A stretch of 36,732 nt of DNA from a virus. The position numbers were made by a program, and so were the translations under genes. The notes beneath the pieces were generated by a model that was not told the DNA's origin, made no database searches, and saw only the letters and a list, made by a program, of their open reading frames with translations. Positions 1 to 36,732 of this stretch are shown piece by piece. The number at the start of each line of letters is the position of its first letter. Position 1 is the first letter of the stretch. The DNA is taken from IMG/VR virus record IMGVR_UViG_3300029922_000179; one strand, 5' to 3'.

Positions 1-67
1 CAACGGCGACGGCTCCGGCTACGGCTACGGCGACGGCCGCTACCCCTACAGTCTGGTGACGCGATGA
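1..67 (+). CDS. 3' fragment of a Gly-X repeat micro-protein (duplicate of the end of 36431..36688 because of the terminal overlap)
   Basis: Reads ...NGDGSGYGYGDGRYPYSLVTR then TGA at 65..67, overlapping the next ATG at 64. Confidence 0.55.
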   Translation, partial: NGDGSGYGYGDGRYPYSLVTR

Positions 68-111
68 AATATCCCAAAGGCTACGGCGACGGCTACGGCG
101 ACGGCTACGGC
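1..111. repeat. Terminal direct overlap; 1..111 is identical to 36622..36732 (signature of a circular or permuted assembly)
   Basis: Base-by-base comparison: both copies read caacggcgacggctccggctacggctacggcgacggccgctacccctacagtctggtgacgcgatgaaatatcccaaaggctacggcgacggctacggcgacggctacggc. Confidence 0.8.
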
Positions 112-231
112 TACGGCTACGGCAACGGCAACGGCTCCGGCAACGGCTACGGCTACGGCAACGGCAACGGCGACGGCTCCGGCTACGGCTACGGCGACGG
201 CCGCTACCCCTACAGTCTGGTGACGCGATGA
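64..231 (+). CDS. Gly-X repeat micro-protein, unit 4 (55 aa; below the ORF-track size cutoff)
   Basis: Hand translation gives MKYPKGYGDGYGDGYGYGYGNGNGSGNGYGYGNGNGDGSGYGYGDGRYPYSLVTR. ATGA overlaps at both ends, and a GGTGA SD-like motif sits 4 nt upstream of the ATG. Confidence 0.6.
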   Translation: MKYPKGYGDGYGDGYGYGYGNGNGSGNGYGYGNGNGDGSGYGYGDGRYPYSLVTR

Positions 232-2763: not shown

Positions 2764-3708
2764 ATGTCCACAACAGAAGATTTCAAGAGCCGCGCTATCG
2801 CAACGACAGAGCCGACTACGTTTCCCCAGATGCTAAAGGCCTTCTTGCCGGAAGTCGAGCGGGCATTGCCCCGTCATCTTAGTGGTGATCGTATGTCGCG
2901 TATCGCATTGACCGCATTTCGTCGCACACCAAAGTTAGCGCAGTGTGATCCGCGATCCGTGTTTGCGGCTGTTATTCAAGCTTCACAATTGGGACTGGAG
3001 CCGGACACTTTGGGCCGGTCTTACCTGATCCCATACGGCACTGAATGTCAGTTTGTTCCAGGCTGGAAAGGTCTGGTTGATCTGATGAATCGAAGCGGCG
3101 CTGGAACCGTCTATACAGGCGTCATTTACAGCGATCAAAAATACACCTATTTAGATGGTTCCAAACGCGAATTGGTGATCCATACAGAAACTGAAATGGA
3201 TGATCCATCCGAAATTACGCATGCATATGCTATTGGATGGGTAAAAGGTTCGGAAATTCCGATTATCGAGTTGTGGCGCATGGCAAAAATTATCAAACAC
3301 TTGAATCGATACAACAAGGTCGGTAAAAGGCATTATGCATTTGAGAACATGGAAATGTATGCGCGCAAAGTGCCATTGCTCCAAGTCCTTAAATACATGC
3401 CGTGTAGCGCCGAGCTAGTCGCCGCTATGAGCCTTTCAGATGCCGCCGAAGTAGGGTCGCAAGGGCTCAACATCAAAGACGCTGCCGATGGCACTTGGAT
3501 GGCTCCAGAAGTCATTGAGGGCCAGCAGGACTCAGTAAGGGCGCCACTCGCTTTTGAAGTCGTATTGAAGAAGATCCGTGGAGCTAAGGACGTAGAAATG
3601 CTCAAGGTGGAGGGTGAGTTGATTGATGATCTTCCTGCTGGTGATCAGGAAGCGGCGAGAGAAGTCTACATCGAATGTCTGGATATCTTAGGGCGCAAGA
3701 AATCGTGA
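2764..3708 (+). CDS. recT: RecT-family single-strand annealing protein
   Basis: VFAAVIQASQLGLEPDTLGRSYLIPYG...FVPGWKGLVDLMNRSG is typical of RecT. AGGAG lies 10 nt upstream of the ATG at 2764; the ORF track starts at TTG 2758. Paired with the YqaJ exonuclease. Confidence 0.7.
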   Translation: MSTTEDFKSRAIATTEPTTFPQMLKAFLPEVERALPRHLSGDRMSRIALTAFRRTPKLAQCDPRSVFAAVIQASQLGLEPDTLGRSYLIPYGTECQFVPGWKGLVDLMNRSGAGTVYTGVIYSDQKYTYLDGSKRELVIHTETEMDDPSEITHAYAIGWVKGSEIPIIELWRMAKIIKHLNRYNKVGKRHYAFENMEMYARKVPLLQVLKYMPCSAELVAAMSLSDAAEVGSQGLNIKDAADGTWMAPEVIEGQQDSVRAPLAFEVVLKKIRGAKDVEMLKVEGELIDDLPAGDQEAAREVYIECLDILGRKKS

Positions 3709-5022: not shown

Positions 5023-5559
5023 TTATTTTTTGCTGGGCGGCGTGCTTTGTGCCAAAAGGATGTTTTTGTCTTCGCTGCCTTTGCTTGAGCCGAAATAGAA
5101 GCCAATAACTTGCTCGCACTTGGCAGACAGATAGCCGACCAGCGTTCCTGCCAGAGCGCTATCGACCTTGGCATAACCCAGTAGGGTGCCGCACACCATC
5201 GCGATGAAACCGCCAACGATAGCGTAGGCAAGCAGAGGAACCGTGATAGCCTTGGTACTGATCTGCATTGTTCGAGCGCTTCCACGATCCGCGACCTCAC
5301 TGGCATAAATCTGCTGCGCATAGTTCAGGTGCAGTTGCAACATGGTTTCGGTGTGCGTGGTCTGGAACTCTTTCGCCTTTTCCACGGCGTCGGCGCTTGA
5401 CGTAAGCGCGGTCAAGATGTCTTCCGGCTTGCTGCTACCGGAGCCGATAGCAGCCGCCAACGCGGTGCCGATGGCAGCACCGCCAGGAATAGGAAGGATG
5501 GCGCCCAGCAGTGGCAGGCCAATTTTTGCAATCTCGGCTCCTAGTGATTCGAGGTCCAT
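5023..5559 (-). CDS. Putative holin / multi-TM lysis membrane protein
   Basis: Three hydrophobic segments (LPLLGAILPIPGGAAIGTALAAAIG; VPLLAYAIVGGFIAMVCGTLLGY; LVGYLSAKCEQVIGFYFG). Lies immediately downstream of the endolysin. ATG at 5559 follows AAGGA; the ORF track starts at TTG 5565. Confidence 0.5.
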   Translation of the reverse strand: MDLESLGAEIAKIGLPLLGAILPIPGGAAIGTALAAAIGSGSSKPEDILTALTSSADAVEKAKEFQTTHTETMLQLHLNYAQQIYASEVADRGSARTMQISTKAITVPLLAYAIVGGFIAMVCGTLLGYAKVDSALAGTLVGYLSAKCEQVIGFYFGSSKGSEDKNILLAQSTPPSKK

Positions 5560-5561
5560 TT

Positions 5562-6005
5562 TCAATCCTTTACGTTAAACCATGTCGCTTCGAGCGCACG
5601 GCGTTTTACAAGACCAGGGAGAACACGGCCGCCACCGCGTACCCAGCGCGCAAACTCGGCATCGGCGCCAGCATAGTCGCCGTCATTGAGCTTGCGCAGC
5701 AATGTAGAACTCGCAAGATTTCCTGAGCCTTCGTTAAAAGTCCAATCGACCAGTGCGTCGAACTGGTGCTGCGTCAGTGGTACGGTGATCATCCGATTTA
5801 CCGCTGATTCGGCATCACCTATATCTTCAATTACCCAAGCATCTGACTGCTCCGGTGTGCAGGCATCTCCTTCCTTTACATCTCTTGTATGGCCGTACCC
5901 AATGGTCCAAGGTGATCCGTCAGTACCTGGATCTGGGTACGCGACTAGAGTGCGACCCTCACTCGCTTCTGTTAATGACTTTCTCGCTTCGTCTGAGTAT
6001 TTCAT
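5562..6005 (-). CDS. Endolysin, T4-lysozyme-like (GH24)
   Basis: EGRTLVAYPDPGTDGSPWTIGYGHT (Glu / Asp / Thr catalytic spacing) plus FDALVDWTFNEG and GLVKRR. ATG at 6005 overlaps the upstream stop (ATGA) and follows GAGGG. Confidence 0.85.
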   Translation of the reverse strand: MKYSDEARKSLTEASEGRTLVAYPDPGTDGSPWTIGYGHTRDVKEGDACTPEQSDAWVIEDIGDAESAVNRMITVPLTQHQFDALVDWTFNEGSGNLASSTLLRKLNDGDYAGADAEFARWVRGGGRVLPGLVKRRALEATWFNVKD

Positions 6006-6550
6006 GCCTTTACCCTCATGTCGCAAATCAAATGGATTCTATCTACCGATCCACCATTGAATACCTCGTGCTCAACCTTATTATCAACACGCCAGCATTC
6101 TCCAGCGACCATCTCTACTGTTTCGTCCCCGCATCTAAAAGTGCAGCCATTCGACGACTGTAGGCAAATATGAAACCGAGTATAGAATTCCGGGTTCTTA
6201 CCTTCATCACAGTGGGCTTTGATACCTTTTCCCGGAGAAATTCTAGAAATAAATACCCTACCTATTTTACTCGCGCCCAATTCTAGCTCGAGTCTTTCCA
6301 TCAACGATGTAGTATTCGACAAAATCGAATGGGCAGGATAATCAATGCACTCCAAATCATCGAACGCTTCACGCTCCCTGCCTTCAATAATTTCATTGAA
6401 TCTAATCCATATATCGTCTACGTCGCCGTGACCTGACCCTGGCATGTCTTTTCTAATGGTGTTCTGGTTCCACAAAAAATTATTACTCGATATTTGTTCG
6501 AGTGCTTTTTTTACATCAATGCCGCGACCGATCAGGCTAAAATTTTTCAT
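6002..6550 (-). CDS. Aspartyl/asparaginyl beta-hydroxylase-like 2OG-Fe(II) cupin oxygenase
   Basis: GIKAHCDEG...RFHICL...GECWRVDNKVEHEVFNGGSVDRIHLICD fits the HxD...H facial triad and family pattern. ATGA overlap with the upstream gene. Confidence 0.6.
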   Translation of the reverse strand: MKNFSLIGRGIDVKKALEQISSNNFLWNQNTIRKDMPGSGHGDVDDIWIRFNEIIEGREREAFDDLECIDYPAHSILSNTTSLMERLELELGASKIGRVFISRISPGKGIKAHCDEGKNPEFYTRFHICLQSSNGCTFRCGDETVEMVAGECWRVDNKVEHEVFNGGSVDRIHLICDMRVKA

Positions 6551-6867
6551 TTTTCGGAATTCCCCCTACCCTGTCGCGCGCGCTCCAAATTTTCAATTCT
6601 GACATCGTGTTTATCTAACTCGCGCTCTGTCGCAGAGATTCTCGCATCATGAGAAGAAATGACCAATTGTTGCTGATCGCTTCTTATCTCTGCCCTTCTT
6701 TCTGATTCCGCTTGCCTAGTCAACATCTGATCCTGCTTGTTTATCAAATTCGTATATTGCGTTGCAACCATCCATATTGCTATACCAATAGCCAAAATAA
6801 CGCTGATCGCGCTACGAACGACCCACGTCAGAGGTATTTTTGTATCGACTATTTTTGATTCTGGCAT
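6547..6867 (-). CDS. N-terminally membrane-anchored coiled-coil protein (possible i-spanin-like)
   Basis: TM segment VVRSAISVILAIGIAIWMVA followed by a charged helical region. First gene of the lysis cluster. Confidence 0.35.
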   Translation of the reverse strand: MPESKIVDTKIPLTWVVRSAISVILAIGIAIWMVATQYTNLINKQDQMLTRQAESERRAEIRSDQQQLVISSHDARISATERELDKHDVRIENLERARQGRGNSEK

Positions 6868-6896
6868 ACCGGTAGATATTCACAGTAGAAACCTAA

Positions 6897-7418
6897 TTAC
6901 GAACCCTCTGGCCAGGTGATCGCCTGCACTGCTGCAACGGTAGTCGCAGCACGAATAGCTGCTTTCAGCTTCTCTCGCTGATTGAACGCGGCATTGCCCT
7001 GCGCAAGCATAGTGCCGTACAGATCACCCAGATCAGCAAGTGTGAACGGCACTTGCGTGTTGTCCTCGGCTTGCCAATAAAAGCCTGTCGGCGTTGTACC
7101 CGCGATGTTGTAGCCGGTGAAATTTTTAAGCAGCACACTTTGACTCGACAGTGGACCGTCGTTGTCTGCCTGGTATGCCTGCGTCACACCCGCTGCATTT
7201 TTGAAACTCACAGATACCTGCACAGCCTCGGCATAGGAGGTATCAATGATTGCAATCTGCGCAGCTTGAGCAGCAGCCAATGTCGGCGCTCGTGCGGCAG
7301 CGATTTGCGCGTCAGTCAAAGGCCCTGCCAATCCTTGCGGCCATGACGCTAGTGCGAGCGCGGCGCCACTTTCATCATCATGCAGAAAGCCTGTCGTAGT
7401 ATCTTGCCAGATAGCCAT
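6897..7418 (-). CDS. Tail-fibre-associated protein (assembly/chaperone-like)
   Basis: Follows the fibre gene. AGAGGA SD. Ala/Gln-rich N-terminus. Call is based on position only. Confidence 0.35.
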   Translation of the reverse strand: MAIWQDTTTGFLHDDESGAALALASWPQGLAGPLTDAQIAAARAPTLAAAQAAQIAIIDTSYAEAVQVSVSFKNAAGVTQAYQADNDGPLSSQSVLLKNFTGYNIAGTTPTGFYWQAEDNTQVPFTLADLGDLYGTMLAQGNAAFNQREKLKAAIRAATTVAAVQAITWPEGS

Positions 7419-7430
7419 TTTGTTTCCTCT

Positions 7431-8546
7431 TTATCGAATTTCTATAATTGAAACTGTACCGCCGTAGCTATATACAAATGATGCTCCGGGCAGCGCTATG
7501 GCCGTAACTTGACCATTCGTAGAAGTCGTAATGGTGGACGACCCAATTAATACTCCATTAACCGAAATTGAATACGTCTGCGGCGATGCAACGGCAAATA
7601 TGGAGAGAAAAATAGGTTTTCCTGTCGTGTTGTAATAAGTAGTGCCGTTTACGCGCGACACTGTTTGCACGGTTTGCCCAAATCCAAGCGACTGCATCGC
7701 AGCCAATGCTTGTCCTCCGATGCCCTGAACGGTTGTTGGCGCTGTTGCCCAAGTACCTGCCGTCGTCTCCGTAATGTCGCAGAAACCACCGACCCTAAAT
7801 GAGGAATTGGTCACAGGAGAAGTTGTATATACCACATTATTAGAAGTTGCCCCAGCACTGATTGCCGTTGAGCTAATCAGTGTAGTTTCGTCTAGATTAT
7901 TTCCGCCAGAGAGATTTATTACTCCAAGAACTGGGGTTCCAGCATTGTACAAAACCAAAAAAATTAGTCTGGCTTGAGTCGCGGAAACTGTTCCCAGAGT
8001 GGCACCAGATGGGATAACTAGGCTTAGGGCAGTACCTATCGTCACTGTATTTGGAATGCCGTTCGTTAGAGTCGCAGAGCGAAAATCTAAAGTCGTAGGA
8101 TTGAGGCCGATAGTCAGCGCATTAGATGCCACAGTAGCCGTAACCGGCTGAATTTTTGATGATTGCGACAAGATAGGCGTGGCGATAATAAAACTCACGC
8201 CATCGTAGATTAGCAATGCAGCTAAGGATGTTGTTACAATCCCCGGCCCTTTTGTGCCATCAGGATTGTATTGATTCAATGTTTGGGCGGCCAAACCAGA
8301 AACCGATATAGTGTTACTCCCGGTAGTCCCGGGGGCATTAAACACGACATAAAAGGTCTGCCCTGCGACATAAGAAGTAATTGGTGTGGCAGGCGTCAAA
8401 GTATAGTTCGGCGAAGTACCAGTTGTAGACAATCCTATCTGAGATGTTGCTATGGCTGTAGCAAGGGCGACATTTTGCACCATATGTTGATCCAGAAGAG
8501 CCATTGGCACTGGAGATGTCTGATTTGCCCAAATAATATCGGCCAT
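7431..8546 (-). CDS. Tail fibre / receptor-binding protein
   Basis: 371 aa, Thr/Ser/Gly/Asn-rich with beta-type composition. Sits at the distal end of the structural module. Confidence 0.5.
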   Translation of the reverse strand: MADIIWANQTSPVPMALLDQHMVQNVALATAIATSQIGLSTTGTSPNYTLTPATPITSYVAGQTFYVVFNAPGTTGSNTISVSGLAAQTLNQYNPDGTKGPGIVTTSLAALLIYDGVSFIIATPILSQSSKIQPVTATVASNALTIGLNPTTLDFRSATLTNGIPNTVTIGTALSLVIPSGATLGTVSATQARLIFLVLYNAGTPVLGVINLSGGNNLDETTLISSTAISAGATSNNVVYTTSPVTNSSFRVGGFCDITETTAGTWATAPTTVQGIGGQALAAMQSLGFGQTVQTVSRVNGTTYYNTTGKPIFLSIFAVASPQTYSISVNGVLIGSSTITTSTNGQVTAIALPGASFVYSYGGTVSIIEIR

Positions 8547-8555
8547 GATTTTCCT

Positions 8556-9227
8556 CTAGGAATATTCGTAAATAATGCAAACTCCAGGCGCGCCAGCGCC
8601 ACCGGTAGTAGCCGATTGTGACGCGCCATTTACCGATCCACCGCCACCAGCTCCATACCCTGTCGCAGCAGTGCCTCCTGCATTCAATCCCCATGCACCG
8701 CCAGCGCCAACCGGCGATCCCGCACCCGCTCCGCCAGTTGATGCTGCCAGCACCTGGAGTGCTGGAAATCCCGGCCAGCCGCCCATGTTAAGGATAGTTG
8801 CACCAGTGGCTATTGAACCGCCTGCGCCGCCAGAAGTCGAAACGCCCGTAGAAGAAGCCACCGACACGCTGGATACACCGCCTGCACCTCCTGGTGCAGT
8901 GAGACTCGCCCCAAATGCAGATTGCCCTCCATTGCCGCCAGTTGCGCCAGAGACGCCAGTACCGGCAGCGCCGATAGTCACAGAGGTAGTGATAGCAGAT
9001 GCGATCTTAGAAATGCAATAAGCACCACTACCACCACCGCCACCACCGGAACCTTGCAGCGCAGCGGTAGAGGGAGATCCGCCGCCAGCACCACCACCAC
9101 CAATTAAGTAGACAATGGTGCTTTTGGCGCCAGTAGTGGGCGTATAAGTACCCGTCGCAGTAATGATCTGGACATTGAGCAATGTGCCTGACGGCGTAGC
9201 GCCAGAAGAAGCGACCGCTTTTAGCAT
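8556..9227 (-). CDS. Glycine-rich-domain tail fibre-like protein
   Basis: IGGGGAGGGSPSTAALQGSGGGGGGSGAY...IGAAGTGVSGATGGNGGQSAFG...APGGAGG is the pattern typical of phage glycine-rich fibre domains. AAGGAG SD. Confidence 0.55.
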   Translation of the reverse strand: MLKAVASSGATPSGTLLNVQIITATGTYTPTTGAKSTIVYLIGGGGAGGGSPSTAALQGSGGGGGGSGAYCISKIASAITTSVTIGAAGTGVSGATGGNGGQSAFGASLTAPGGAGGVSSVSVASSTGVSTSGGAGGSIATGATILNMGGWPGFPALQVLAASTGGAGAGSPVGAGGAWGLNAGGTAATGYGAGGGGSVNGASQSATTGGAGAPGVCIIYEYS

Positions 9228-13867: not shown

Positions 13868-15235
13868 CTAGCTGGAAGAATTCGAAGAGCCGGAAGACGA
13901 ATACATTTTCGCAAGCGTTTGCATGAAATTCGTCATCGCTTGTTGGCTCTGTTGATCTGCCGTTGTTGCTGCTGTTACGCCAGCCAATTGCGGACCCTGC
14001 GCAACTCCTGCGGCGGATAGGCCTCCGCTCAGTTCATTATTGAGCGCCTGCTGCATCATCTGATTTTGTTGCACGCCGACCTGTGCCAATGCGCTTGCTT
14101 CCATCGATGAATTACTCAATCCAGCATTGGCATAATACTGCTTTATTTGCGCCTGTTGCTGCTGTCCGTATTGCGCGATGGATTGCTGATCCGCAGTGCT
14201 CAACGTGCCGCTCTGATAGTTCGTCAGTAACTGATTGGACACCGCCGATGCGGGAGCTGCGATAGCGTTCAACTGGTTTTGAGCAGTTGCCCCAGTCGTT
14301 GTCGCCGCAGTTTGCGCCTTTTTCGCCATCAGCAAGCTGGCTATTGGCGTAGCTATTCCGGCCACATCCTTGCCAACGCTTAACGCTGTTTTTCCATAGG
14401 CTCCAAGTTGCTTTAGCGCGCTTGTGATTGACGAATTACTGCCTTGGTTGTCTGCTCCAGAACCTGTTCCTGTACCGTAGGGAGTACCATTTTGAGCGGA
14501 ATCCGTGTCGAGAATGTCATTGGACACCGGAGTTGCTGGCGTCGACGGTAACGTAGCCGCTGATGCAGACTGAGCAGCAGCATTGGATACGTCGGCGGGC
14601 GGATTAGTGATTGTTCCAGTAGCGGCATTTGTAGCAGGGCTTGTATTGGGATTGACCGCGTCCGGAGTTACGCTTGCCGGTGCGGATGCAGAGTCTGCGG
14701 AGGATGGTAATGCGGCACTATCAGAAACAACCTGGGAATCTGCTCCTGATAAATCTGAAAGAGCTGAATTTTCAGAGCCTAAGCCAAGTCCGCTAGCTCC
14801 AGAACCGAAAGTAGGGGTAGAGGAATTAATCCCCATGCTGGAAGCGCTTGCCCCTAAATCAGAGCCTCCGACATTTCCATAAATGTCCGCAGAGGAAGAT
14901 CCCAGATTGGATAACCCTGATGCTCCCTGATAAATATTTCCTACATCCTGTAGATCTCCCAATGTTGACCCAGAGGAAGCGGATGGCATTGCCAGCGTAG
15001 CCCCCTCCGCAGCGCTAGCAGCACCAGCACCTGCGTCAGCAGCCGCCGCTCCAGCTCCAACATCGGCTGCGGCAGCACCGCCAGCCACATCGGCTGCGGC
15101 AGCACCGCCAGCCACATCGGCTGCGGCAGCACCGCCAGCCACATCGGCTGCTCCTGCCGCCCCAGCATCCGCAGCCGCTGCCTCTCCAGCAGTTTTAGCG
15201 CCCTCTTCAGCTCCAACAGATCCAGAAACACCCAT
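13868..15235 (-). CDS. Low-complexity Ala/Ser/Gly/Gln-rich virion protein (455 aa)
   Basis: ORF track. AGGAGA SD. Contains the AADVAGGAA x3 repeat. Confidence 0.5.
   Translation of the reverse strand: MGVSGSVGAEEGAKTAGEAAAADAGAAGAADVAGGAAAADVAGGAAAADVAGGAAAADVGAGAAAADAGAGAASAAEGATLAMPSASSGSTLGDLQDVGNIYQGASGLSNLGSSSADIYGNVGGSDLGASASSMGINSSTPTFGSGASGLGLGSENSALSDLSGADSQVVSDSAALPSSADSASAPASVTPDAVNPNTSPATNAATGTITNPPADVSNAAAQSASAATLPSTPATPVSNDILDTDSAQNGTPYGTGTGSGADNQGSNSSITSALKQLGAYGKTALSVGKDVAGIATPIASLLMAKKAQTAATTTGATAQNQLNAIAAPASAVSNQLLTNYQSGTLSTADQQSIAQYGQQQQAQIKQYYANAGLSNSSMEASALAQVGVQQNQMMQQALNNELSGGLSAAGVAQGPQLAGVTAATTADQQSQQAMTNFMQTLAKMYSSSGSSNSSS
15061..15151. repeat. Perfect 27-nt tandem repeat, about 3.4 copies (catcggctgcggcagcaccgccagcca)
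   Basis: Read directly. Encodes AADVAGGAA repeats in the 13868..15235 product. Confidence 0.85.
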
Positions 15236-31515: not shown

Positions 31516-31558
31516 CCAACCGGGGCTTCGGCCCAAAACCACAACAGGAGCTAAACAA

Positions 31559-32116
31559 ATGAAAACCACATTAAAAAAGATCAGAGAGTGTGCGGCATCC
31601 CCCGCCAGCTTACAAAAGTTATTGCGTTCGTTAGGTAAAACGAAAGCAGATGCCGAACCCGTTTCCATCATTCAGATTCTGGACAGCAACGGATTAGATG
31701 ATGCGCTGTGGTGTCTGCGTGCAGTGGAAGGTCATGACCGCGAGATTCGACTTTTTGCTGTGTGGTGCGCTCGCCAAGTCGAACATTTGATGATGGATGA
31801 GAGAAGCAAGAACGCATTGAACGTCGCCGAACGTTTCGCCAATGGCGAGGCATCGAAAGTCGAATTGGCCGCTGCCAAGGCCGCTGCCTTGGCAGCTGCC
31901 TGGGCCGCTGCCTGGGCCGCTGCCTGGGCCACTGCCAGGGCCGCTGCCTTGGACGCTGCCTGGGCCACTGCCAGGGCCACTACCAAGGCCGCTGCCTTGG
32001 ACGCTGCCTTGGACGCTGCCTGGGACGCTGCCTGGGCCACTGCCAGGGCCGCTCAAGAAAAAGAACTGCGCCGAGTCTGCGCAAAGATCGAAGCAGATTT
32101 GGCAGTAGGCGCATAG
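31559..32116 (+). CDS. Helical protein with a C-terminal Ala-rich tetrapeptide repeat, (A/D)(A/T)(A/T)(W/L/R/K) x15
   Basis: AGGAG SD before the ATG at 31559. The N-terminal part (ALWCLRAV...RLFAVWCARQVEHL...ALNVAERFANGEAS) resembles Imm5-like putative immunity proteins, from memory only and unverified. Confidence 0.55.
   Translation: MKTTLKKIRECAASPASLQKLLRSLGKTKADAEPVSIIQILDSNGLDDALWCLRAVEGHDREIRLFAVWCARQVEHLMMDERSKNALNVAERFANGEASKVELAAAKAAALAAAWAAAWAAAWATARAAALDAAWATARATTKAAALDAALDAAWDAAWATARAAQEKELRRVCAKIEADLAVGA
31868..32047 (+). repeat. 12-nt coding tandem repeat (GCC GCT GCC TGG and variants), 15 units
   Basis: Units read AAAK AAAL AAAW AAAW AAAW ATAR AAAL DAAW ATAR ATTK AAAL DAAL DAAW DAAW ATAR. 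Confidence 0.85.
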
Positions 32117-32361: not shown

Positions 32362-32598
32362 TTGGACACATTGGTCTTGTTGATTTTAACAGGATGCCAA
32401 AAAACACCGCACCACATGCATCGTCATGCGATGTGCGCCTTTGTCTTTGAGAGAGTAAATCATGAGCTACCTAGCCACCACGTTCTTTTATCTCCAAGCG
32501 CTCGCGCTCCAGAACATCGGGACAAGATGCGGCGAAATGTACTATCACGCTATGTGCTTGGCCGCCGCCAATCTGATCAAGGAGGGTCTGTAACATGA
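32362..32598 (+). CDS. Uncertain small ORF (78 aa, TTG start, lipobox-like LILTGC)
   Basis: AAGGAGG lies 6 nt upstream of the TTG. A competing 43-aa ATG ORF (32462..32593, MSYLATTFFYLQALALQNIGTRCGEMYYHAMCLAAANLIKEGL) lies in another frame. Confidence 0.3.
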   Translation: MDTLVLLILTGCQKTPHHMHRHAMCAFVFERVNHELPSHHVLLSPSARAPEHRDKMRRNVLSRYVLGRRQSDQGGSVT

Positions 32599-32801
32599 GC
32601 CTCGCAGACTTAATAAAAAAGGCCAGAAAATCCTCTGGAATGACCCTAGATGAGCTAGCCGAGTGTGCGAGCATGAGCAAGTCCTACATCTGGAGCCTGG
32701 AGAACGGCGTAGACACAAATCCGACACTGGGCCACTGCGTGCGGCTTTCTCTGGCGCTCGGAATCAGCGTTAATGCAATGGCTGCGGCATCTGTAGCATG
32801 A
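32595..32801 (+). CDS. XRE/Cro-family helix-turn-helix regulator
   Basis: IKKARKSSGMTLDELAECASMSKSYIWSLENGVDTNPTLGHCVRLSLALGISV is a canonical HTH_3-type pattern. AAGGAGG SD. Confidence 0.8.
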   Translation: MSLADLIKKARKSSGMTLDELAECASMSKSYIWSLENGVDTNPTLGHCVRLSLALGISVNAMAAASVA

Positions 32802-33670: not shown

Positions 33671-33949
33671 ATGAACACAAAAATCTTAGCAGTTTCCGGC
33701 GGTTTCTATTTCTTTGGAACAGAAATTACTGCGCAGGCCGATGGCTATATCGCCCTCAAAAACGCCGCGATGTTTGGTGGTTTTTCTGGTGGAAAAGGGT
33801 TGCCTGGGGTGGCGCGCGGCGATAAGTCGTCGACAGTCATACTGGACCAATTCGTTCCAGAAGAAGAGCTGCTGTTTCCAGTAACGGCCGTGTTTGCAAT
33901 TCTCCCTTCCATCGATCTCTATACCTTCAAAGGTACTACTTTACGATAA
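33671..33949 (+). CDS. Hypothetical protein (92 aa), first gene of the MoxR/vWA/array block
   Basis: AAGGAG lies 6 nt upstream of the ATG at 33671. Contains a GGFSGGKGLPGVARGD motif. Confidence 0.55.
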   Translation: MNTKILAVSGGFYFFGTEITAQADGYIALKNAAMFGGFSGGKGLPGVARGDKSSTVILDQFVPEEELLFPVTAVFAILPSIDLYTFKGTTLR

Positions 33950-34016
33950 ATAGGATTTCCAGAAGGGTCGCTAAATAGCGGCCTTCCTTCATCGTACAAA
34001 AACAAGAGGAGTAGTC

Positions 34017-34805
34017 ATGAGAAAATTATTCTCGCCACACATACCCGTCCTTTTAATTGGCCCTCCCGGCATAGGAAAAACGGAACGCGTACAGTCGTAT
34101 TTCGACCACGCCGAAGTCATGCTGACATCGACGCTTGTCGAGGAGGACATCGGCGGACTTCCCTATCGCGAGGGGGAATACGATTACCGCACCATTCCTG
34201 CTATGTTTCGTCGGCTAGAAGAAGCCAACACAAATGGTAAAACAACTGTTCTTTTTCTTGATGAGCTGGATAAGGCAAGGCGCTCTGTAGCTGACACGTT
34301 GCTAACCCTTATTGCCTCGCGTAAAGTTGGATCTGCTTCATTACCGAAAAATACGTGCATTGTTGCCGCTGGCAATCCCCCAGAGTTCGGCGGCGGTGAT
34401 GGAATTAGCGAGGCGATGCTATCACGATTTGCAGTCGTTGACTGCGAGCCGGATATTCTGGAATGGTGCGAATGGGCCAAGAAAAATTTCTCTCCCGAGA
34501 TAGCCAGCGGTGTGATCAATGCGATAAAGACGGGAGAAATGCCGATCTTCGATCGCACAGGAGAAGGTCTCGATAAACGTATTTCTTCTCCCAGAACTAT
34601 TGCGATGGCTCTTCGCGCCGTAGGAATGTTTTCGCCGGGAAGCGACGAACTTTCGCGATTGGTTCGGGGACTTCTTACGCCAGCAGTGGCAAGCCAGCTT
34701 CTCTATCTTGTGCGTAATCAACACAATGATGTACTTGATGTCGCTACTGGCTCTGCAAAAAGAAGCTCGTTAAAGAAGTCGGTTATACAACCGGTGAGAC
34801 TCTGA
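34017..34805 (+). CDS. MoxR-like AAA+ ATPase
   Basis: Walker A LLIGPPGIGKTE, Walker B VLFLDELDKA, sensor-1-like IVAAGNPPE. AGAGGAG SD. Confidence 0.8.
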   Translation: MRKLFSPHIPVLLIGPPGIGKTERVQSYFDHAEVMLTSTLVEEDIGGLPYREGEYDYRTIPAMFRRLEEANTNGKTTVLFLDELDKARRSVADTLLTLIASRKVGSASLPKNTCIVAAGNPPEFGGGDGISEAMLSRFAVVDCEPDILEWCEWAKKNFSPEIASGVINAIKTGEMPIFDRTGEGLDKRISSPRTIAMALRAVGMFSPGSDELSRLVRGLLTPAVASQLLYLVRNQHNDVLDVATGSAKRSSLKKSVIQPVRL

Positions 34806-34807
34806 TC

Positions 34808-35854
34808 ATGCTTACCGCTGCCCCTATAATTCGTAAGCCCCTGTCCTTAATTGGGGCGCCTGGCTTGACCGACTTTGTCAAGATATACATCGCTTCAGAA
34901 CTTAACAAGCGAGAATATCGTACGACCCTGCGTCATGAGCAAGCACATGTTTGGGCTGGCCATAACCGTAGACGGCCAAAAGATGCTGTCGACAAGTTGT
35001 GGCGCATCGCCTGCGAAATGGAAATTGCAAAGACGATCTACGACGATATTGATATTGAAAACATCAATGCTCCTCGTTCTAGATTATCTGGTGGGTATCT
35101 CCCTGATACGTTGGCGAATATGCCCGTAGGCATTATCTTAGCAGAAGACATCTACGAATGGCTTCTGCAACAATCGGAAAACGAGATACCAGACGTCGAA
35201 TGCACATGCTCCTGTACATGCAATTCTGACCGAGATGAGGAGTCAGATCAACCCGATGCGTCTACGATGGTAGAATCCGCGCGCGCGGCTCTGGACGATA
35301 TCGACAAGGTCGGGGATGCGCAAGCCGCAGTAACTAGCAACTATAATCACTTGAAGAACCGCACCCCTTCTCTCACTGACGAAGTAGACGCGGCTTTACG
35401 GGTGAGAGTAGAAAGAGAGCGCACACATAGACGGCCTTCTCGTAGGGACTCTCCAAATGTAATCCTTCCTGGCGCCGTATCGATTCCTAGACCGCCTCTG
35501 GTAGAGATATTCGTCGATAGAAGTGGCTCGTTCTCTTCTGACAAAACCGCCCAAGCTGAAATTCGGCTAAAAAAAATACTGGCAAAATACGGCGCTAGTA
35601 TAGCCGCTGATGTTTGGTTCTTTGGGAATGGTAGAATATCGGCCAGCGATATAAGAGGTGGAGGGGATACGCCATACCATCTAATCGCCCAACATCTCGC
35701 CGTCTCTTTGCCGAAGATAGCCATCGTAATTACCGACGATGATCCGGTAGAAAACTCAATTAAGCCGGTTTTAGGGCCAGTTATAATTTGCGTTCCCGTG
35801 GGATGCACATCTACAAATTTAGCCCGTCGCCTCGGCGGAAAAGACGTTGCATGA
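34808..35854 (+). CDS. Zincin-like metallopeptidase domain + vWA (MIDAS) domain protein (DUF2201-like architecture)
   Basis: HExxH in LRHEQAHVWAGH. MIDAS DxSxS in EIFVDRSGSFSS. Later AIVITDDD strand. Starts 2 nt after the MoxR stop, and its own stop overlaps the first array ATG (ATGA). Confidence 0.7.
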   Translation: MLTAAPIIRKPLSLIGAPGLTDFVKIYIASELNKREYRTTLRHEQAHVWAGHNRRRPKDAVDKLWRIACEMEIAKTIYDDIDIENINAPRSRLSGGYLPDTLANMPVGIILAEDIYEWLLQQSENEIPDVECTCSCTCNSDRDEESDQPDASTMVESARAALDDIDKVGDAQAAVTSNYNHLKNRTPSLTDEVDAALRVRVERERTHRRPSRRDSPNVILPGAVSIPRPPLVEIFVDRSGSFSSDKTAQAEIRLKKILAKYGASIAADVWFFGNGRISASDIRGGGDTPYHLIAQHLAVSLPKIAIVITDDDPVENSIKPVLGPVIICVPVGCTSTNLARRLGGKDVA

Positions 35855-36138
35855 AATATCCCAAAGGCTACGGCGACGGCGACGGCTACGGCGACGGCGA
35901 CGGCTACGGCTACGGCGACGGCTACGGCTACGGCGACGGCGACGGCGACGGCTACGGCGACGGCGACGGCTACGGCAACGGCAACGGCAACGGCGACGGC
36001 GACGGCTACGGCAACGGCAACGGCTACGGCGACGGCTCCGGCAACGGCTACGGCTACGGCTCCGGCGACGGCTACGGCTACGGCTACGGCTACGGCTACG
36101 GCGACGGCCGCTACCCCTACAGTCTGGTGACGCGATGA
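35851..36138 (+). CDS. Gly-X repeat micro-protein, unit 1 (95 aa)
   Basis: The ATG at 35851 overlaps the vWA gene stop (ATGA). Product is MKYPKG-(G-X)n-GDGRYPYSLVTR. The ORF-track start at 35788 lies inside the vWA gene and is unlikely. Confidence 0.6.
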   Translation: MKYPKGYGDGDGYGDGDGYGYGDGYGYGDGDGDGYGDGDGYGNGNGNGDGDGYGNGNGYGDGSGNGYGYGSGDGYGYGYGYGYGDGRYPYSLVTR

Positions 36139-36434
36139 AATATCCCAAAGGCTACGGCGACGGCTACGGCTACGGCTCCGGCAACGGCTACGGCTACGGC
36201 AACGGCTACGGCGACGGCTACGGCTACGGCGACGGCGACGGCGACGGCTACGGCGACGGCGACGGCTACGGCAACGGCAACGGCAACGGCGACGGCGACG
36301 GCTACGGCAACGGCAACGGCTACGGCGACGGCTCCGGCAACGGCTACGGCTACGGCTCCGGCGACGGCTACGGCTACGGCTCCGGCTACGGCTACGGCTA
36401 CGACCGCTACCCCTACAGTCTGGTGACGCGATGA
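36135..36434 (+). CDS. Gly-X repeat micro-protein, unit 2 (99 aa)
   Basis: ATG at 36135 inside the conserved junction. The ORF-track 35847 ORF merely reads through unit 1 in the LRRR frame. Confidence 0.6.
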   Translation: MKYPKGYGDGYGYGSGNGYGYGNGYGDGYGYGDGDGDGYGDGDGYGNGNGNGDGDGYGNGNGYGDGSGNGYGYGSGDGYGYGSGYGYGYDRYPYSLVTR

Positions 36435-36688
36435 AATATCCCAAAGGCTACGGCGACGGCAACGGCTACGGCGACGGCTACGGCGACGGCTACGGCGACG
36501 GCTACGGCTACGGCAACGGCAACGGCTACGGCGACGGCTACGGCTACGGCGACGGCTACGGCTACGGCGACGGCTCCGGCTACGGCTACGGCTCCGGCAA
36601 CGGCTACGGCTACGGCAACGGCAACGGCGACGGCTCCGGCTACGGCTACGGCGACGGCCGCTACCCCTACAGTCTGGTGACGCGATGA
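36431..36688 (+). CDS. Gly-X repeat micro-protein, unit 3 (85 aa)
   Basis: ORF track. Same architecture; ATGA overlaps. Confidence 0.6.
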   Translation: MKYPKGYGDGNGYGDGYGDGYGDGYGYGNGNGYGDGYGYGDGYGYGDGSGYGYGSGNGYGYGNGNGDGSGYGYGDGRYPYSLVTR

Positions 36689-36732
36689 AATATCCCAAAG
36701 GCTACGGCGACGGCTACGGCGACGGCTACGGC
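36685..36732 (+). CDS. 5' fragment of unit 4 (identical to 64..111)
   Basis: MKYPKGYGDGYGDGYG..., truncated by the window end. Confidence 0.55.
   Translation, partial: MKYPKGYGDGYGDGYG

Follow-up and report, generated by a model that had tools for sequence, protein, structure and literature searches.

Several pairs of a MoxR ATPase and a vWA protein have been characterised, namely CbbQ-CbbO, NorQ-NorD, RavA-ViaA, CoxD-CoxE and Rea1/midasin with Ytm1/Rsa4, and in these pairs the client is bound through an acidic residue, at the MIDAS. They share with the locus described here an AAA+ protein of the MoxR/AAA_5 type and a partner with the vWA fold and a complete MIDAS (DxSxS...T...D). However, the vWA protein of our locus carries an N-terminal gluzincin, the presumed clients are phage-encoded and of low complexity, and there is no metal-cofactor enzyme nearby. 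MoxR-vWA systems have been listed (PMC7159879), and in jumbo phages a MoxR ATPase and a metallopeptidase-vWA protein were described as a "chaperone-cochaperone pair", for which a role in virion assembly was proposed (PMC7824862). In N4-like (Schitoviridae) phages and group 2.2 jumbo phages (PHROG 1297 and 1314; PMC7824862) the gene order is the same as here, with the AAA_5 ATPase first and the zincin-vWA protein second, but these pairs have neither the Sm-like RG[D/E] protein nor the genes for Gly-Tyr (GY) peptides that accompany ours. The pair of ATPase and zincin-vWA protein (DUF2201) has itself been seen before, in N4-like and jumbo phages, as an uncharacterised pair.

We analysed a stretch of viral DNA of 36,732 nt (IMG/VR record IMGVR_UViG_3300029922_000179), the whole of which is called the window below. 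The features of the locus, in the order in which the block is read, are:

33671-33949, plus strand: gene for a small 92-aa protein, with an RGD loop at 33815-33823
34017-34805, plus strand: gene for a MoxR-like AAA+ ATPase (AAA_5) of 262 aa
34059-34082, 34254-34271 and 34365-34379, plus strand: ATPase motifs Walker A (GPPGIGKT), Walker B (FLDELD) and AAGNP
34808-35854, plus strand: gene for a protein of 348 aa with a zincin domain (HExxH...E) and a VWA-like domain (MIDAS)
34934-34948 and 35015-35029, plus strand: zincin-domain motifs HEQAH and EMEIA of the 348-aa protein
35201-35221, plus strand: Cys-rich linker CTCSCTC of the 348-aa protein
35516-35536, 35660-35677 and 35729-35743, plus strand: vWA motifs DRSGSFS (MIDAS DRSGS at 35516-35530), GGDTPY and ITDDD of the 348-aa protein
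35851-36138, plus strand: GY peptide 1, 95 aa, MKYPKG-(G-X)n-RYPYSLVTR, with its start codon and the vWA stop overlapping (ATGA)
36135-36434, plus strand: GY peptide 2, 99 aa, with an ATGA overlap
36431-36688, plus strand: GY peptide 3, 85 aa, with an ATGA overlap
36685-36732, plus strand: GY peptide 4, N-terminal part only, cut by the window end
1-67, plus strand: GY peptide, C-terminal part only, cut by the window start
64-231, plus strand: GY peptide, 55 aa
228-485, plus strand: GY peptide, 85 aa
482-733, plus strand: GY peptide, 83 aa
730-927, plus strand: GY peptide, 65 aa
924-1202, plus strand: last GY peptide, 92 aa, C-terminus ...RYPYSLVTRP, followed by an AT-rich gap of 56 nt

All genes and motifs that a first, sequence-only reading had named are present at these positions. 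That reading had the three genes before the array packed 2 nt apart, which is correct for the junction between the ATPase and the vWA gene and incorrect for the small gene, which lies 67 nt before the ATPase. The overlap that it described between the vWA gene and the first peptide gene is there (35851-35854), the vWA stop occupying 35852-35854 and the ATG of the peptide starting at 35851. At every later peptide junction an identical 20-mer is followed by ATGA. The array of GY micro-genes spans 35851-36732 and 1-1202 and holds at least nine copies in the window, a lower bound because both window ends cut the array; if the genome is circular, the fragment at 1-67 may continue the peptide begun at 36685. 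No terminator-like or promoter-like break was found inside the block. A search of the whole window against Rfam gave 0 matches, and therefore no support for an RNA element. When 24.7 kb of the window were compared by megablast with 50,697 deposited phage records, nothing matched, and there is no reference from a cultured phage.

The ATPase and the zincin-vWA protein

The first reading called the ATPase MoxR-like, and Pfam agrees: the match to AAA_5 (PF07728) spans the full model (1-139) and scores 48.3 bits, where the cutoff is 22 (E 1.3e-12). There is also a match to phrog_1297, annotated as 'ATPase' (E 2.3e-31). The protein is below the cutoffs for AAA_3 (PF07726; 23.1 bits against 27) and bpMoxR (14.1 against 27), and we therefore call it MoxR-like and not MoxR proper. 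The related loci retain Walker A, Walker B and sensor-1 as GxxGxGKT, (L/F)(F/L)DE(L/I/M)D and AA(A/G)N, and nearly all of these loci have the ATPase and vWA genes side by side. N4-like phages and others encode a 'MoxR-like ATPase' with which it shares 26-33% identity. Among the 50,697 deposited phage records only the ATPase found matches, to distant pairs, while tblastn with the vWA protein and with the small protein found none. A relative of the ATPase in Burkholderia cepacia has a weak AAA_3 match.

The 348-aa protein itself scores below the Pfam gathering threshold for DUF2201 (16.1 bits against 26.4) and has no match to DUF2201_N at E <= 0.1. With hhalign, its family aligned over 280 columns (probability 98.2%) with a protein of the N4-like Xanthomonas virus PB119, which passes both Pfam models, DUF2201_N and DUF2201 (E 9e-42 and 8e-24). 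Three relatives (P0075, P0087 and P0093) pass one DUF2201-type Pfam model each, and 16 relatives carry a precomputed PF13203 or PF09967 match. To judge from these profiles, the protein is a divergent member of the DUF2201_N + DUF2201 (zincin + VWA-like) architecture, the one that the first reading had named. It also matches phrog_1314 (E 1.8e-17); the PHROG label of that family, 'HNH endonuclease', does not suit a zincin with a vWA domain and was rejected.

Residues H43, E44, H47, H52, E72, D237, S239, S241, T309, D310 and D312 are invariant (H43, E44, H47 and E72 in an alignment of 28 sequences), and the conservation of T288 is at least 90%. Both the HExxH and the MIDAS residues, whose conservation the first reading had proposed to check, are thus kept in relatives, except for a Defluviitaleaceae clade in which the catalytic Glu has disappeared from HExxH (HASCH, HTSCH, HAKAH). 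This clade keeps the peptide and its C-terminal motif, and therefore trimming at the conserved peptide ends, one of the functions suggested earlier, cannot be the whole story.

An AF2 model of the 348-aa protein reached a pLDDT of 83. The top Foldseek matches of its C-terminal domain are integrin chains; VWF-A was also found, the VWA domain of CLCA1 is at rank 3 (E 1.9e-3), and NorD of NorQD is at rank 20. CLCA is a zincin metalloprotease that cleaves itself and continues into a VWA domain; it has the same domain order as our protein, a zincin and then a VWA domain with a MIDAS. This likeness is at the level of domain order and fold; CLCA is eukaryotic and secreted, and has no AAA+ partner. 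Other searches were negative: the vWA and small-protein profiles found nothing usable among PDB sequences, NCBIfam and PADLOC gave nothing above noise, and Pfam matches of the peptides and the linker to 'TrAA12', 'serine-rich' and TCP were below cutoff and are low-complexity artefacts.

The small protein, a predicted barrel

The first reading proposed a system of three components. There are four, and the fourth, the 92-aa protein, to which that reading had given no interpretation, is the best conserved of all, with 54-85% identity where the vWA protein has 28-63%. Its gene has a Shine-Dalgarno sequence (AAGGAG) 7 nt upstream, and relatives use the same start Met. No match was found for it in Pfam, PHROG, NCBIfam or PDB sequences; 160 relatives were found, none of them named. 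One further match of its profile, a protein of 1314 aa (P0296), was rejected as an unrelated repetitive protein.

The AF2 model of the 92-aa protein has a pLDDT of 96.4. The best PDB match by Foldseek is the Sm/LSm-like structure 3by7 (E 2.4e-4, TM 0.58-0.66), followed by many Sm rings with E around 1e-2; the model lacks the N-terminal helix. On TM scores of about 0.6 only, the protein is predicted to be an Sm-like small beta-barrel. In a structure search of BFVD, phage proteins of DUF6948 were at ranks 2, 5, 7 and 13 (TM 0.60-0.69). Membership of DUF6948 (PF22253) by sequence was rejected, with hhalign probabilities of 0.2-0.9% and no Pfam DUF6948 match for the small protein and four relatives; the family is a lead from fold and synteny only. 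In the four DUF6948 contigs examined, the small barrel gene is followed directly by one for a (G-Y/D/N/S)n protein (4/4), and these cassettes, which lie in the early regions of other phages, adjoin recombination genes, as our module does. They differ in that the GY region is a tail on a globular domain, without the YPY terminus, and in having no MoxR or vWA gene in their flanks.

The exposed loop RG[D/E] of the barrel is nearly invariant: R49 and G50 do not vary, D51 is kept in at least 90%, and the RGE variant was found in two loci (L037 and L043). Integrin I-like domains bind RGD ligands. The likeness to our module, a vWA fold with a MIDAS paired with an Arg-Gly-Asp loop, is an analogy only, and the module differs in being intracellular and prokaryotic. 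The first reading had looked for the MIDAS ligand among the Asp residues of the peptides. These are variable, and because the RG[D/E] loop is nearly invariant, the barrel is at least as good a candidate ligand.

The GY peptides and their linkage to the pair

The peptides share one plan: they begin with M-x-[Y/L]-P-x-G, continue as a strictly alternating (Gly-X)n core, in which X is mostly Tyr, Asp or Asn, and end in Y-P-[Y/H]-x plus a short hydrophobic tail. They had been described as Asp-rich, but across 64 peptides X is Tyr in 43%, Asp in 21% and Asn in 19%, so that Tyr-rich is the better term. The core is of low complexity and free in length (31-143 aa), and a locus has from one to 13 or more peptides. 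According to the locus, Gly is encoded by GGC, GGA, GGT or GGG and Tyr by TAC or TAT, and Gly-Tyr and both termini are constant.

These features bear on whether the peptides are made at all. An array that is a DNA-level repeat, such as a slippage-prone hexamer satellite, iterons or a recombination substrate, with incidental ORFs, would fit the 6-nt periodicity, which is perfect for more than 1.9 kb, the use of a single codon per residue within a locus, the breaking of contigs inside the array and the variation in array length among contigs that are identical upstream, although this variation may be an assembly artefact. However, the unit differs by locus (GGCTAC, GGATAT, GGTTAT, GGGTAT), only the Gly-Tyr frame, the start, the stop and the terminal motifs are conserved, the other five frames are not, and irregular, non-satellite versions of the peptides keep the same termini; a mere DNA repeat is hardly credible. 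Since the Gly codon and the gene order vary and the Gly-Tyr core and the termini are kept, we take the peptides to be translated; they are under protein-level selection. An origin of the array as a polyprotein or frameshift product was rejected, as the peptide ORFs are separate across loci, being joined by ATGA overlaps or set apart by spacers of 4 nt or 15 nt.

Eukaryotic Gly/Tyr low-complexity regions ([G/S]Y[G/S], FUS-type) and silk-type (Gly-X)n repeats are of like composition, with Gly alternating with a residue that has a side chain, but there is no homology. By analogy, the GY composition suggests self-association into a gel, a condensate or a beta-sheet fibre.

The peptides may also be regarded as precursors of a RiPP-like or bacteriocin-like product, from which the zincin would remove leader and follower, leaving the core as a toxin, a signal or a cyclised product. 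Tandem precursor-like genes with constant ends and hypervariable cores are in keeping with this, as is a zincin encoded alongside them. There is an analogy with systems of a zincin and a small FxSxx-COOH precursor (PMC7159879), where small variable proteins with a conserved C-terminal motif also go with a zincin; their motifs are different and their peptidase is not fused to a vWA domain. We consider such a product quite unlikely. The block has no conserved gene for a modifying enzyme, a transporter or immunity, the core is a low-complexity sequence of free length, the clade without the catalytic Glu keeps its peptide, and the AAA+ protein, the vWA domain and the barrel would be left without a role.

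The first reading had proposed a survey of the neighbourhoods of vWA relatives for low-complexity micro-ORFs, and its outcome favours a link. Of the 45 non-redundant loci whose vWA protein is related to ours (identity as low as 28%), 36 encode GY peptides on the same strand; four of the nine negative loci are contigs cut at the vWA gene, which leaves 36 of 41 among the loci that are at least partly informative. As a control, the same detector was run on 168 kb (strand-nt) of phage DNA outside such modules and found 0 GY ORFs; the recurrence goes beyond chance. In IMG/VR, the junction motif of the array is found only on module-bearing contigs, bar one match (L066, MKYPNGKTPS...), which was rejected as an array and attributed to chance.

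Gene order is not fixed. There are loci with ATPase, small gene, vWA gene and six peptides (L053), with peptide, small gene, peptide, ATPase, peptide and vWA gene (L037), and with ATPase, vWA gene, small gene and 13 peptides (L083); in others a peptide comes directly after the small gene (L008/L010, L035 and L043). The module was found with five peptides in a finished isolate genome, that of Cupriavidus oxalaticus (CP196448.1), and also in prophages of Luteibacter, Dyella and Burkholderia cepacia. The four parts are genetically linked across phages of Proteobacteria, Firmicutes and Spirochaetes. One close relative (L004/L020) has the small protein, the ATPase and the vWA protein, and no peptide within 2 kb downstream. 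Neither the barrel nor the peptides go with the more distant MoxR/DUF2201 pairs (N4-like phages, L036/L044), and therefore the pair does not need either. GY-repeat regions are also found, with no AAA_5 or vWA gene close by, in small phage proteins that belong to other families.

The module adjoins a gene of the HTH repressor type and genes for RecE, RecT and SSB; the structural genes are on the other strand. Among relatives the neighbours vary (RecT, SSB, Erf, YqaJ, HTH, RtcB and others), and only the four parts are constant. These surroundings bear on a role as a virion-assembly chaperone, in which the pair would mature structural proteins and the GY peptides would be scaffold, glue or unrelated passengers. 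Such a role in structural maturation has been published as a proposal for the homologous architecture (PMC7824862), and a precedent is the Acidianus two-tailed virus, for its tail (cited in PMC7824862 and PMC7159879). However, the module lies in the early/recombination region, opposite in strand to the portal, capsid and tail genes, the modules of relatives travel with RecT, SSB, Erf or YqaJ and not with structural genes, and N4-like phages place the pair among early or middle genes. The tight link between barrel and GY peptides would also be left unexplained, and we regard this role as very unlikely.

Lambda cIII competes for FtsH. In a similar way, the GY peptides could be mass-made decoys or sponges for host takeover or counter-defence, which saturate or block a protease, a chaperone, a sensor or a metal pool of the host, with the pair and the barrel assisting their folding or turnover, or acting separately. 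The place of the module among accessory genes of an early operon, the high gene dosage with translational coupling and the fast change in copy number and length, typical of conflict genes, would be expected of a decoy, and GY regions also occur on other small early phage proteins. However, repeat slippage alone also predicts rapid change, nothing defence-related was matched, in PADLOC or otherwise, and no target was identified, so that a decoy appears unlikely. The third component of the MoxR-vWA ternary conflict systems, a beta-propeller or VMAP, was not found in the block either, where bpMoxR is below cutoff and PADLOC gave no match.

A possible client-remodelling module

The reading that we prefer, with our confidence about evenly divided between its being right and wrong, is that the locus is one conserved, co-transcribed and early-expressed four-part module of temperate phages which acts as a client-remodelling machine. 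Its steps are drawn by analogy with CbbQ-CbbO, NorQ-NorD, RavA-ViaA and Rea1/midasin. The barrel protein would be a client or product of this machine, and so would the GY peptides. The metal of the vWA MIDAS would grip an acidic residue of a client, most likely the Asp or Glu of the RG[D/E] loop and less likely an Asp of the peptides, the AAA+ ring would supply ATP-driven remodelling, and the zincin domain, where active, would cut clients. The barrel, probably a ring, may bind the conserved ends of the peptides. In this way the machine would load, release or mature a large dose of Gly-Tyr polypeptide early in infection, and this polypeptide may form a fibre, a gel or a condensate, or saturate a host factor, near the recombination and replication functions.

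A bolder form of the client-remodelling proposal, which we put forward as doubtful, is that the RG[D/E] barrel and the GY peptides make up a previously unrecognised low-complexity material of phages, a fibre, a gel or a condensate. Its nucleation would take place on the barrel ring, and the AAA+/MIDAS/zincin machine would load, mature or dissolve it early in infection, perhaps in order to set up or control a compartment around recombination and replication, and the cassettes of DUF6948 with GY tails would be a simpler version.

In the literature on DUF2201, DUF6948, phage Gly-Tyr repeats and MoxR/vWA proteins, we found no description of the arrays, the small protein or the four-part version. 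The parts are of familiar kinds; the combination and its purpose were not found described. Tandem arrays of translated, strictly alternating (Gly-X)n micro-genes are unusual for phages, and they are probably under-reported because their repeats systematically break short-read assemblies. MoxR-vWA pairs are widespread, and few of them have known clients. Within the phage pairs of the DUF2201 zincin-vWA type, the subfamily described here brings its own linked candidate clients, the barrel and up to 13 GY micro-proteins, and as the module resides in prophages of culturable bacteria it is accessible to experiment.

The four-part module in the window

At 36.7 kb, the window is a phage-like genome, with genes for a portal, a major capsid protein, a RecE-like exonuclease and an HTH repressor-type protein. 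No close relatives were found among 50,697 deposited phage records. Its plus strand harbors a module of four parts: a small protein, a MoxR-like AAA+ ATPase, a zincin-vWA protein (these two are called the pair here) and an array of tandem micro-genes for peptides with a (Gly-X)n core, the GY peptides.

Features of the module and its upstream side in the window
32595-32801: HTH gene, upstream of the plus-strand module
33671-33949, +: small gene, 92 aa, with a strong Shine-Dalgarno sequence
34017-34805, +: ATPase, 262 aa, 67 nt past the small gene
34808-35854, +: zincin-vWA protein, 348 aa, 2 nt past the ATPase gene
35851-36732 and 1-1202, +: GY array, leaving the window end and resuming at position 1

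The TGA of the 348-aa gene overlaps the ATG of the first array gene. Each array member has the layout MKYPKG-(Gly-X)n-RYPYSLVTR, and an identical 20-mer plus ATGA joins each member to the next, so that the reading frame rotates by one each time. Eight complete genes and two cut ones were counted, and the array therefore has at least nine genes. There is no promoter-like or terminator-like break within the four-part block, which is one transcription unit. Temperate phages carry the module in their early/recombination region, and two of the compared contigs, L002 and L078, have an integrase. The sequence-only reading of this locus is confirmed with small corrections: its quoted motifs are all present where it had placed them, but the small gene does not lie 2 nt from the ATPase gene, and the peptides, described as Asp-rich, contain more Tyr than Asp (X is Y in 43%, D in 21% and N in 19%; 64 peptides).

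Other features were noted in the window. A 56-nt AT-rich gap follows the array, with two promoter-like sites (1199-1260), and then comes a 97-aa Cys-rich ORF (1259-1552), the end of which overlaps the first part of the RecE-like exonuclease gene (1540-2505). The ORF at 31550-32116 (+) matches phrog_18326, of unknown function (E 2.6e-53), and contains a 12-nt tandem repeat (15.6 copies, 31867-32053) encoding an Ala/Trp-rich periodic stretch (AAWAAAWAAAWATARAAALDAAW...). A 27-nt tandem repeat (3.4 copies, 100% match) is present at 15060-15166, in the structural-gene region on the minus-strand side.

Association of the GY peptides with the pair

Loci with relatives of the vWA protein were drawn from IMG/VR, GTDB genomes, JGI metagenomes and a contig index, giving 45 loci after duplicate removal, the window included as one. 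At least one same-strand Gly/aromatic-rich ORF was found in 36 of the 45. Among the nine loci without a peptide ORF, four are contigs that break off at the vWA gene, two are cut on one side and three are informative. L004/L020, a close relative, has other genes directly after the vWA gene and no peptide ORF, while L036 and L044, of a distant subfamily, have neither a peptide ORF nor the small protein. Run on 168 kb (strand-nt) of phage DNA lacking the module, the same GY-ORF detector gave no matches. Comparative genomics supports the functional link that had been proposed between the pair and the peptides. The junction pattern ACNCGATGAARTAYCCNAANGG occurs in nine places in IMG/VR, eight of them on module-bearing contigs; the ninth is a chance match. 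That the array is no metagenome artefact follows from a finished isolate chromosome, Cupriavidus oxalaticus CP196448.1: after its small, ATPase and vWA genes come five peptides (M[N/R]YPDG...QYPYRMVTR), with RecT and YqaJ beyond them. The prophage concerned lies at about 1,038,879-1,055,934, and prophages of Luteibacter and Dyella have the module too. Gene order differs from clade to clade, with all four parts remaining together.

Gene order of the module parts at compared loci
L053: ATPase-small-vWA-6 peptides
L037: peptide-small-peptide-ATPase-peptide-vWA
L040: peptides-ATPase-vWA-8 peptides
L083: ATPase-vWA-small-13 peptides
L008/L010, L035, L043: peptide directly after the small gene

The L083 array (5316-8690; also in L084), which follows ATPase-vWA-small, has 13 peptides of the form MKQ[L/F/M]P[E/N/D]G...YPY[N/K/S]QMVK[I/V/T], and the genes flanking the block are RtcB and one of COOH-NH2 ligase type. 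One member (5528-5749) lacks its C-terminus, which continues in another frame to 5856; this break is a frameshift or a sequencing error. The viral contig L003 has two GY arrays, one (2898-3415, two peptides) lying about 3 kb ahead of the module, the other (7047-7866, three peptides) directly after the vWA gene; in one L003 peptide a (Gly-His)n stretch replaces Gly-Tyr.

One Gly codon dominates at each locus (GGC in the window, GGA in L018 and L040, GGT in L034 and L052, GGG in L054) and Tyr is encoded by TAC or TAT across loci; thus the DNA unit changes while the Gly-Tyr reading is kept. The other frames of the arrays are not conserved, and a search of Rfam gave no match. Both ends of the peptides are conserved as protein motifs, M-x-[Y/L/F/M]-P-x-G at the N-terminus and Y-P-[Y/H]-x plus 3-5 mostly hydrophobic residues at the C-terminus. 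The peptide genes are separate under ATGA overlaps and 4- or 15-nt spacers alike, and Firmicute loci have irregular, non-satellite versions with the same C-terminus. Because the codons change with Gly-Tyr kept, the termini are conserved and the ORFs are separate, we conclude that the GY peptides are real small proteins. They have 31-143 aa and an Asp content of 4 to 16%, and their copy number goes from 1 to at least 13.

The arrays vary in length between closely related contigs. The sister contigs L012 and L013 match the window in the upstream overlap (for L012, 0 mismatches in 1165 nt), and their first peptide has 133 aa (L012 1165-1640) and 87 aa (L013 690-1048) against 95 in the window (35851-36434 compared), the changes being always in frame and the termini the same. 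This difference may be due either to rapid in-frame repeat change or population heterogeneity, or to an assembly effect or collapse. Many contigs end within the array (L001/L064, L006, L014, L019, L047, L049, L076 and L085), some with the array at both ends, as in the window. They look like assembly breaks on circular genomes, the GY repeat breaking short-read assemblies of genomes that are probably circular.

Protein families of the pair and of the small barrel protein

The Pfam AAA_5 model matches the ATPase over its full length (E 1.3e-12), and PHROG 1297 matches it too (E 2.3e-31); the scores for AAA_3 (MoxR proper) and bpMoxR lie under the cutoffs, and 'MoxR-like AAA+' is therefore the right naming level. 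In the Pfam check proposed in the sequence-only reading, the 348-aa protein itself remained under the DUF2201 cutoff (16.1 bits vs 26.4), PF13203 or PF09967 being found on several of its 93 relatives. This protein also matches PHROG 1314 (E 1.8e-17), whose label 'HNH endonuclease' is wrong for it. A profile of 28 of its relatives matched the 'putative metallopeptidase' of Xanthomonas virus PB119 (98.2% probability), which passes DUF2201_N (E 9e-42) and DUF2201 (E 8e-24) and whose gene comes after that of a 'MoxR-like ATPase'. The AAA_5 and PB119 matches support the families first assigned, a MoxR-like ATPase and a zincin plus vWA protein.

In the alignment, the zincin residues H43, E44, H47 and E72 (HExxH...E) and the MIDAS residues D237, S239, S241, T309, D310 and D312 are invariant, and T288 is nearly so. 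Both motifs are conserved in relatives save for the catalytic Glu of HExxH, which is replaced in a Defluviitaleaceae clade (HASCH, HTSCH, HAKAH). In the AF2 model (pLDDT 83) a Cys-rich linker of poor order joins a helical N-domain to a C-domain, and for the C-domain Foldseek retrieved integrin I-like, VWF-A and CLCA1 VWA domains and NorD of NorQD. The linker motif CTCSCTC (residues 132-138, window 35201-35221) lies in a low-confidence part of the model between zincin and vWA; two to four Cys are present at this position in most relatives, and it may be a small metal site.

Emphasis moves from these parts to the 92-aa protein, which had been overlooked. It has zero matches in Pfam, PHROGs, NCBIfam and PDB sequences and is the most conserved part of the module, with 54-85% identity where the vWA protein has 28-63%. 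This is a small family, of 160 clusters at 90% identity, and only 25 matches were found in 1.84 billion representatives at 50% identity, including two tandem fusions and one spurious match. In the relatives P0293 and P0294 two barrel domains are fused in tandem, with RGD in both copies of one and in the first copy only of the other. A Gly-rich loop ends in an RG[D/E] motif, whose R49 and G50 never vary and whose third residue, at position 51, is Asp in at least 90% of the sequences, two clades having Glu. The AF2 model is a very confident all-beta barrel (pLDDT 96.4). Its nearest solved structure is the Sm/LSm-like 3by7 (E 2.4e-4, TM 0.58-0.66), with Sm rings of archaea and eukaryotes next in rank, and the modeled protein is likely Sm-like.

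A barrel-peptide partnership is suggested by several clades in which the peptide gene comes directly after the barrel gene. A window peptide used as query retrieved many further small phage proteins in which (G-Y/D/N/S)n regions sit on globular domains. In one such family the globular domain is N-terminal and the (G-Y/D/S)n tail C-terminal, and a DUF6948 gene lies directly upstream in 4/4 contigs examined.

Cassettes of DUF6948 (PF22253) and GY-tail protein
L073: 5720-6429
L080: 1372-2064
L081: 2730-3363
L082: 1233-1879

The cassettes adjoin ERF, RusA or PDDEXK genes on phage-like, unrelated contigs, and no AAA_5 or vWA gene was found in their flanks on the four contigs. In BFVD, DUF6948 proteins are at ranks 2, 5, 7 and 13 for the window barrel (TM 0.60-0.69); the small protein and DUF6948 have no profile-level sequence similarity. 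These cassettes are an independent hint of a barrel-peptide partnership. The 51.7-kb phage-like contig L071 carries two adjacent paralogues (5612-6004 and 6001-6333, 4-nt overlap) with an N-terminal GY region and a common C-terminal domain, and no module genes were found within 6 kb of them.

Known pairs and possible functions of the module

The ATPase and zincin-vWA protein form a known, uncharacterised phage pair, present in N4-like phages. For group 2.2 jumbo phages, Iyer et al. 2021 (PMC7824862) proposed that it acts in virion assembly; they called it a 'chaperone-cochaperone pair' and noted the N-terminal metallopeptidase. The module described here lies among early/recombination genes, the structural genes being on the other strand, and thus a virion-assembly role does not fit well for this subfamily. 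A literature search that left most subscription journals uncovered showed neither the barrel protein nor the GY arrays nor the module as a whole to have been described.

The four parts are genetically linked and have intact active-site motifs. MoxR-vWA pairs include CbbQ-CbbO, NorQ-NorD, RavA-ViaA and Rea1/midasin (PMC7159879). By analogy, the vWA MIDAS metal would grip a client through an acidic residue as the AAA+ ring remodels that client. For this residue the strongest candidate would be the near-invariant Asp/Glu of the barrel RG[D/E] loop, in a manner like integrin-RGD recognition. The zincin domain would cut a client. In the Defluviitaleaceae clade MIDAS and barrel are retained, and a peptide is present that still bears the C-terminal motif; since this motif is kept despite the lost catalytic Glu, the conserved peptide ends are more likely to be docking motifs than only cleavage sites. 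In these MAGs from termite gut (L008, L009, L010 and L039) the peptide is single, longer and irregular, and in L008 and L010 it comes after the small gene, with an HxlR-like regulator gene inserted before the ATPase.

In our working model, the barrel and the GY polypeptide would form the core, and the MoxR/zincin-vWA pair would be a dedicated loader, releaser or maturase. The GY material could associate with itself into a fibre, gel or condensate near recombination/replication functions or, alternatively, serve as a decoy for a host factor. We regard the module as a MoxR-vWA system whose co-encoded set of putative clients is new, and as worth following for the strangeness and conservation of its arrays and for the culturable lysogens available.
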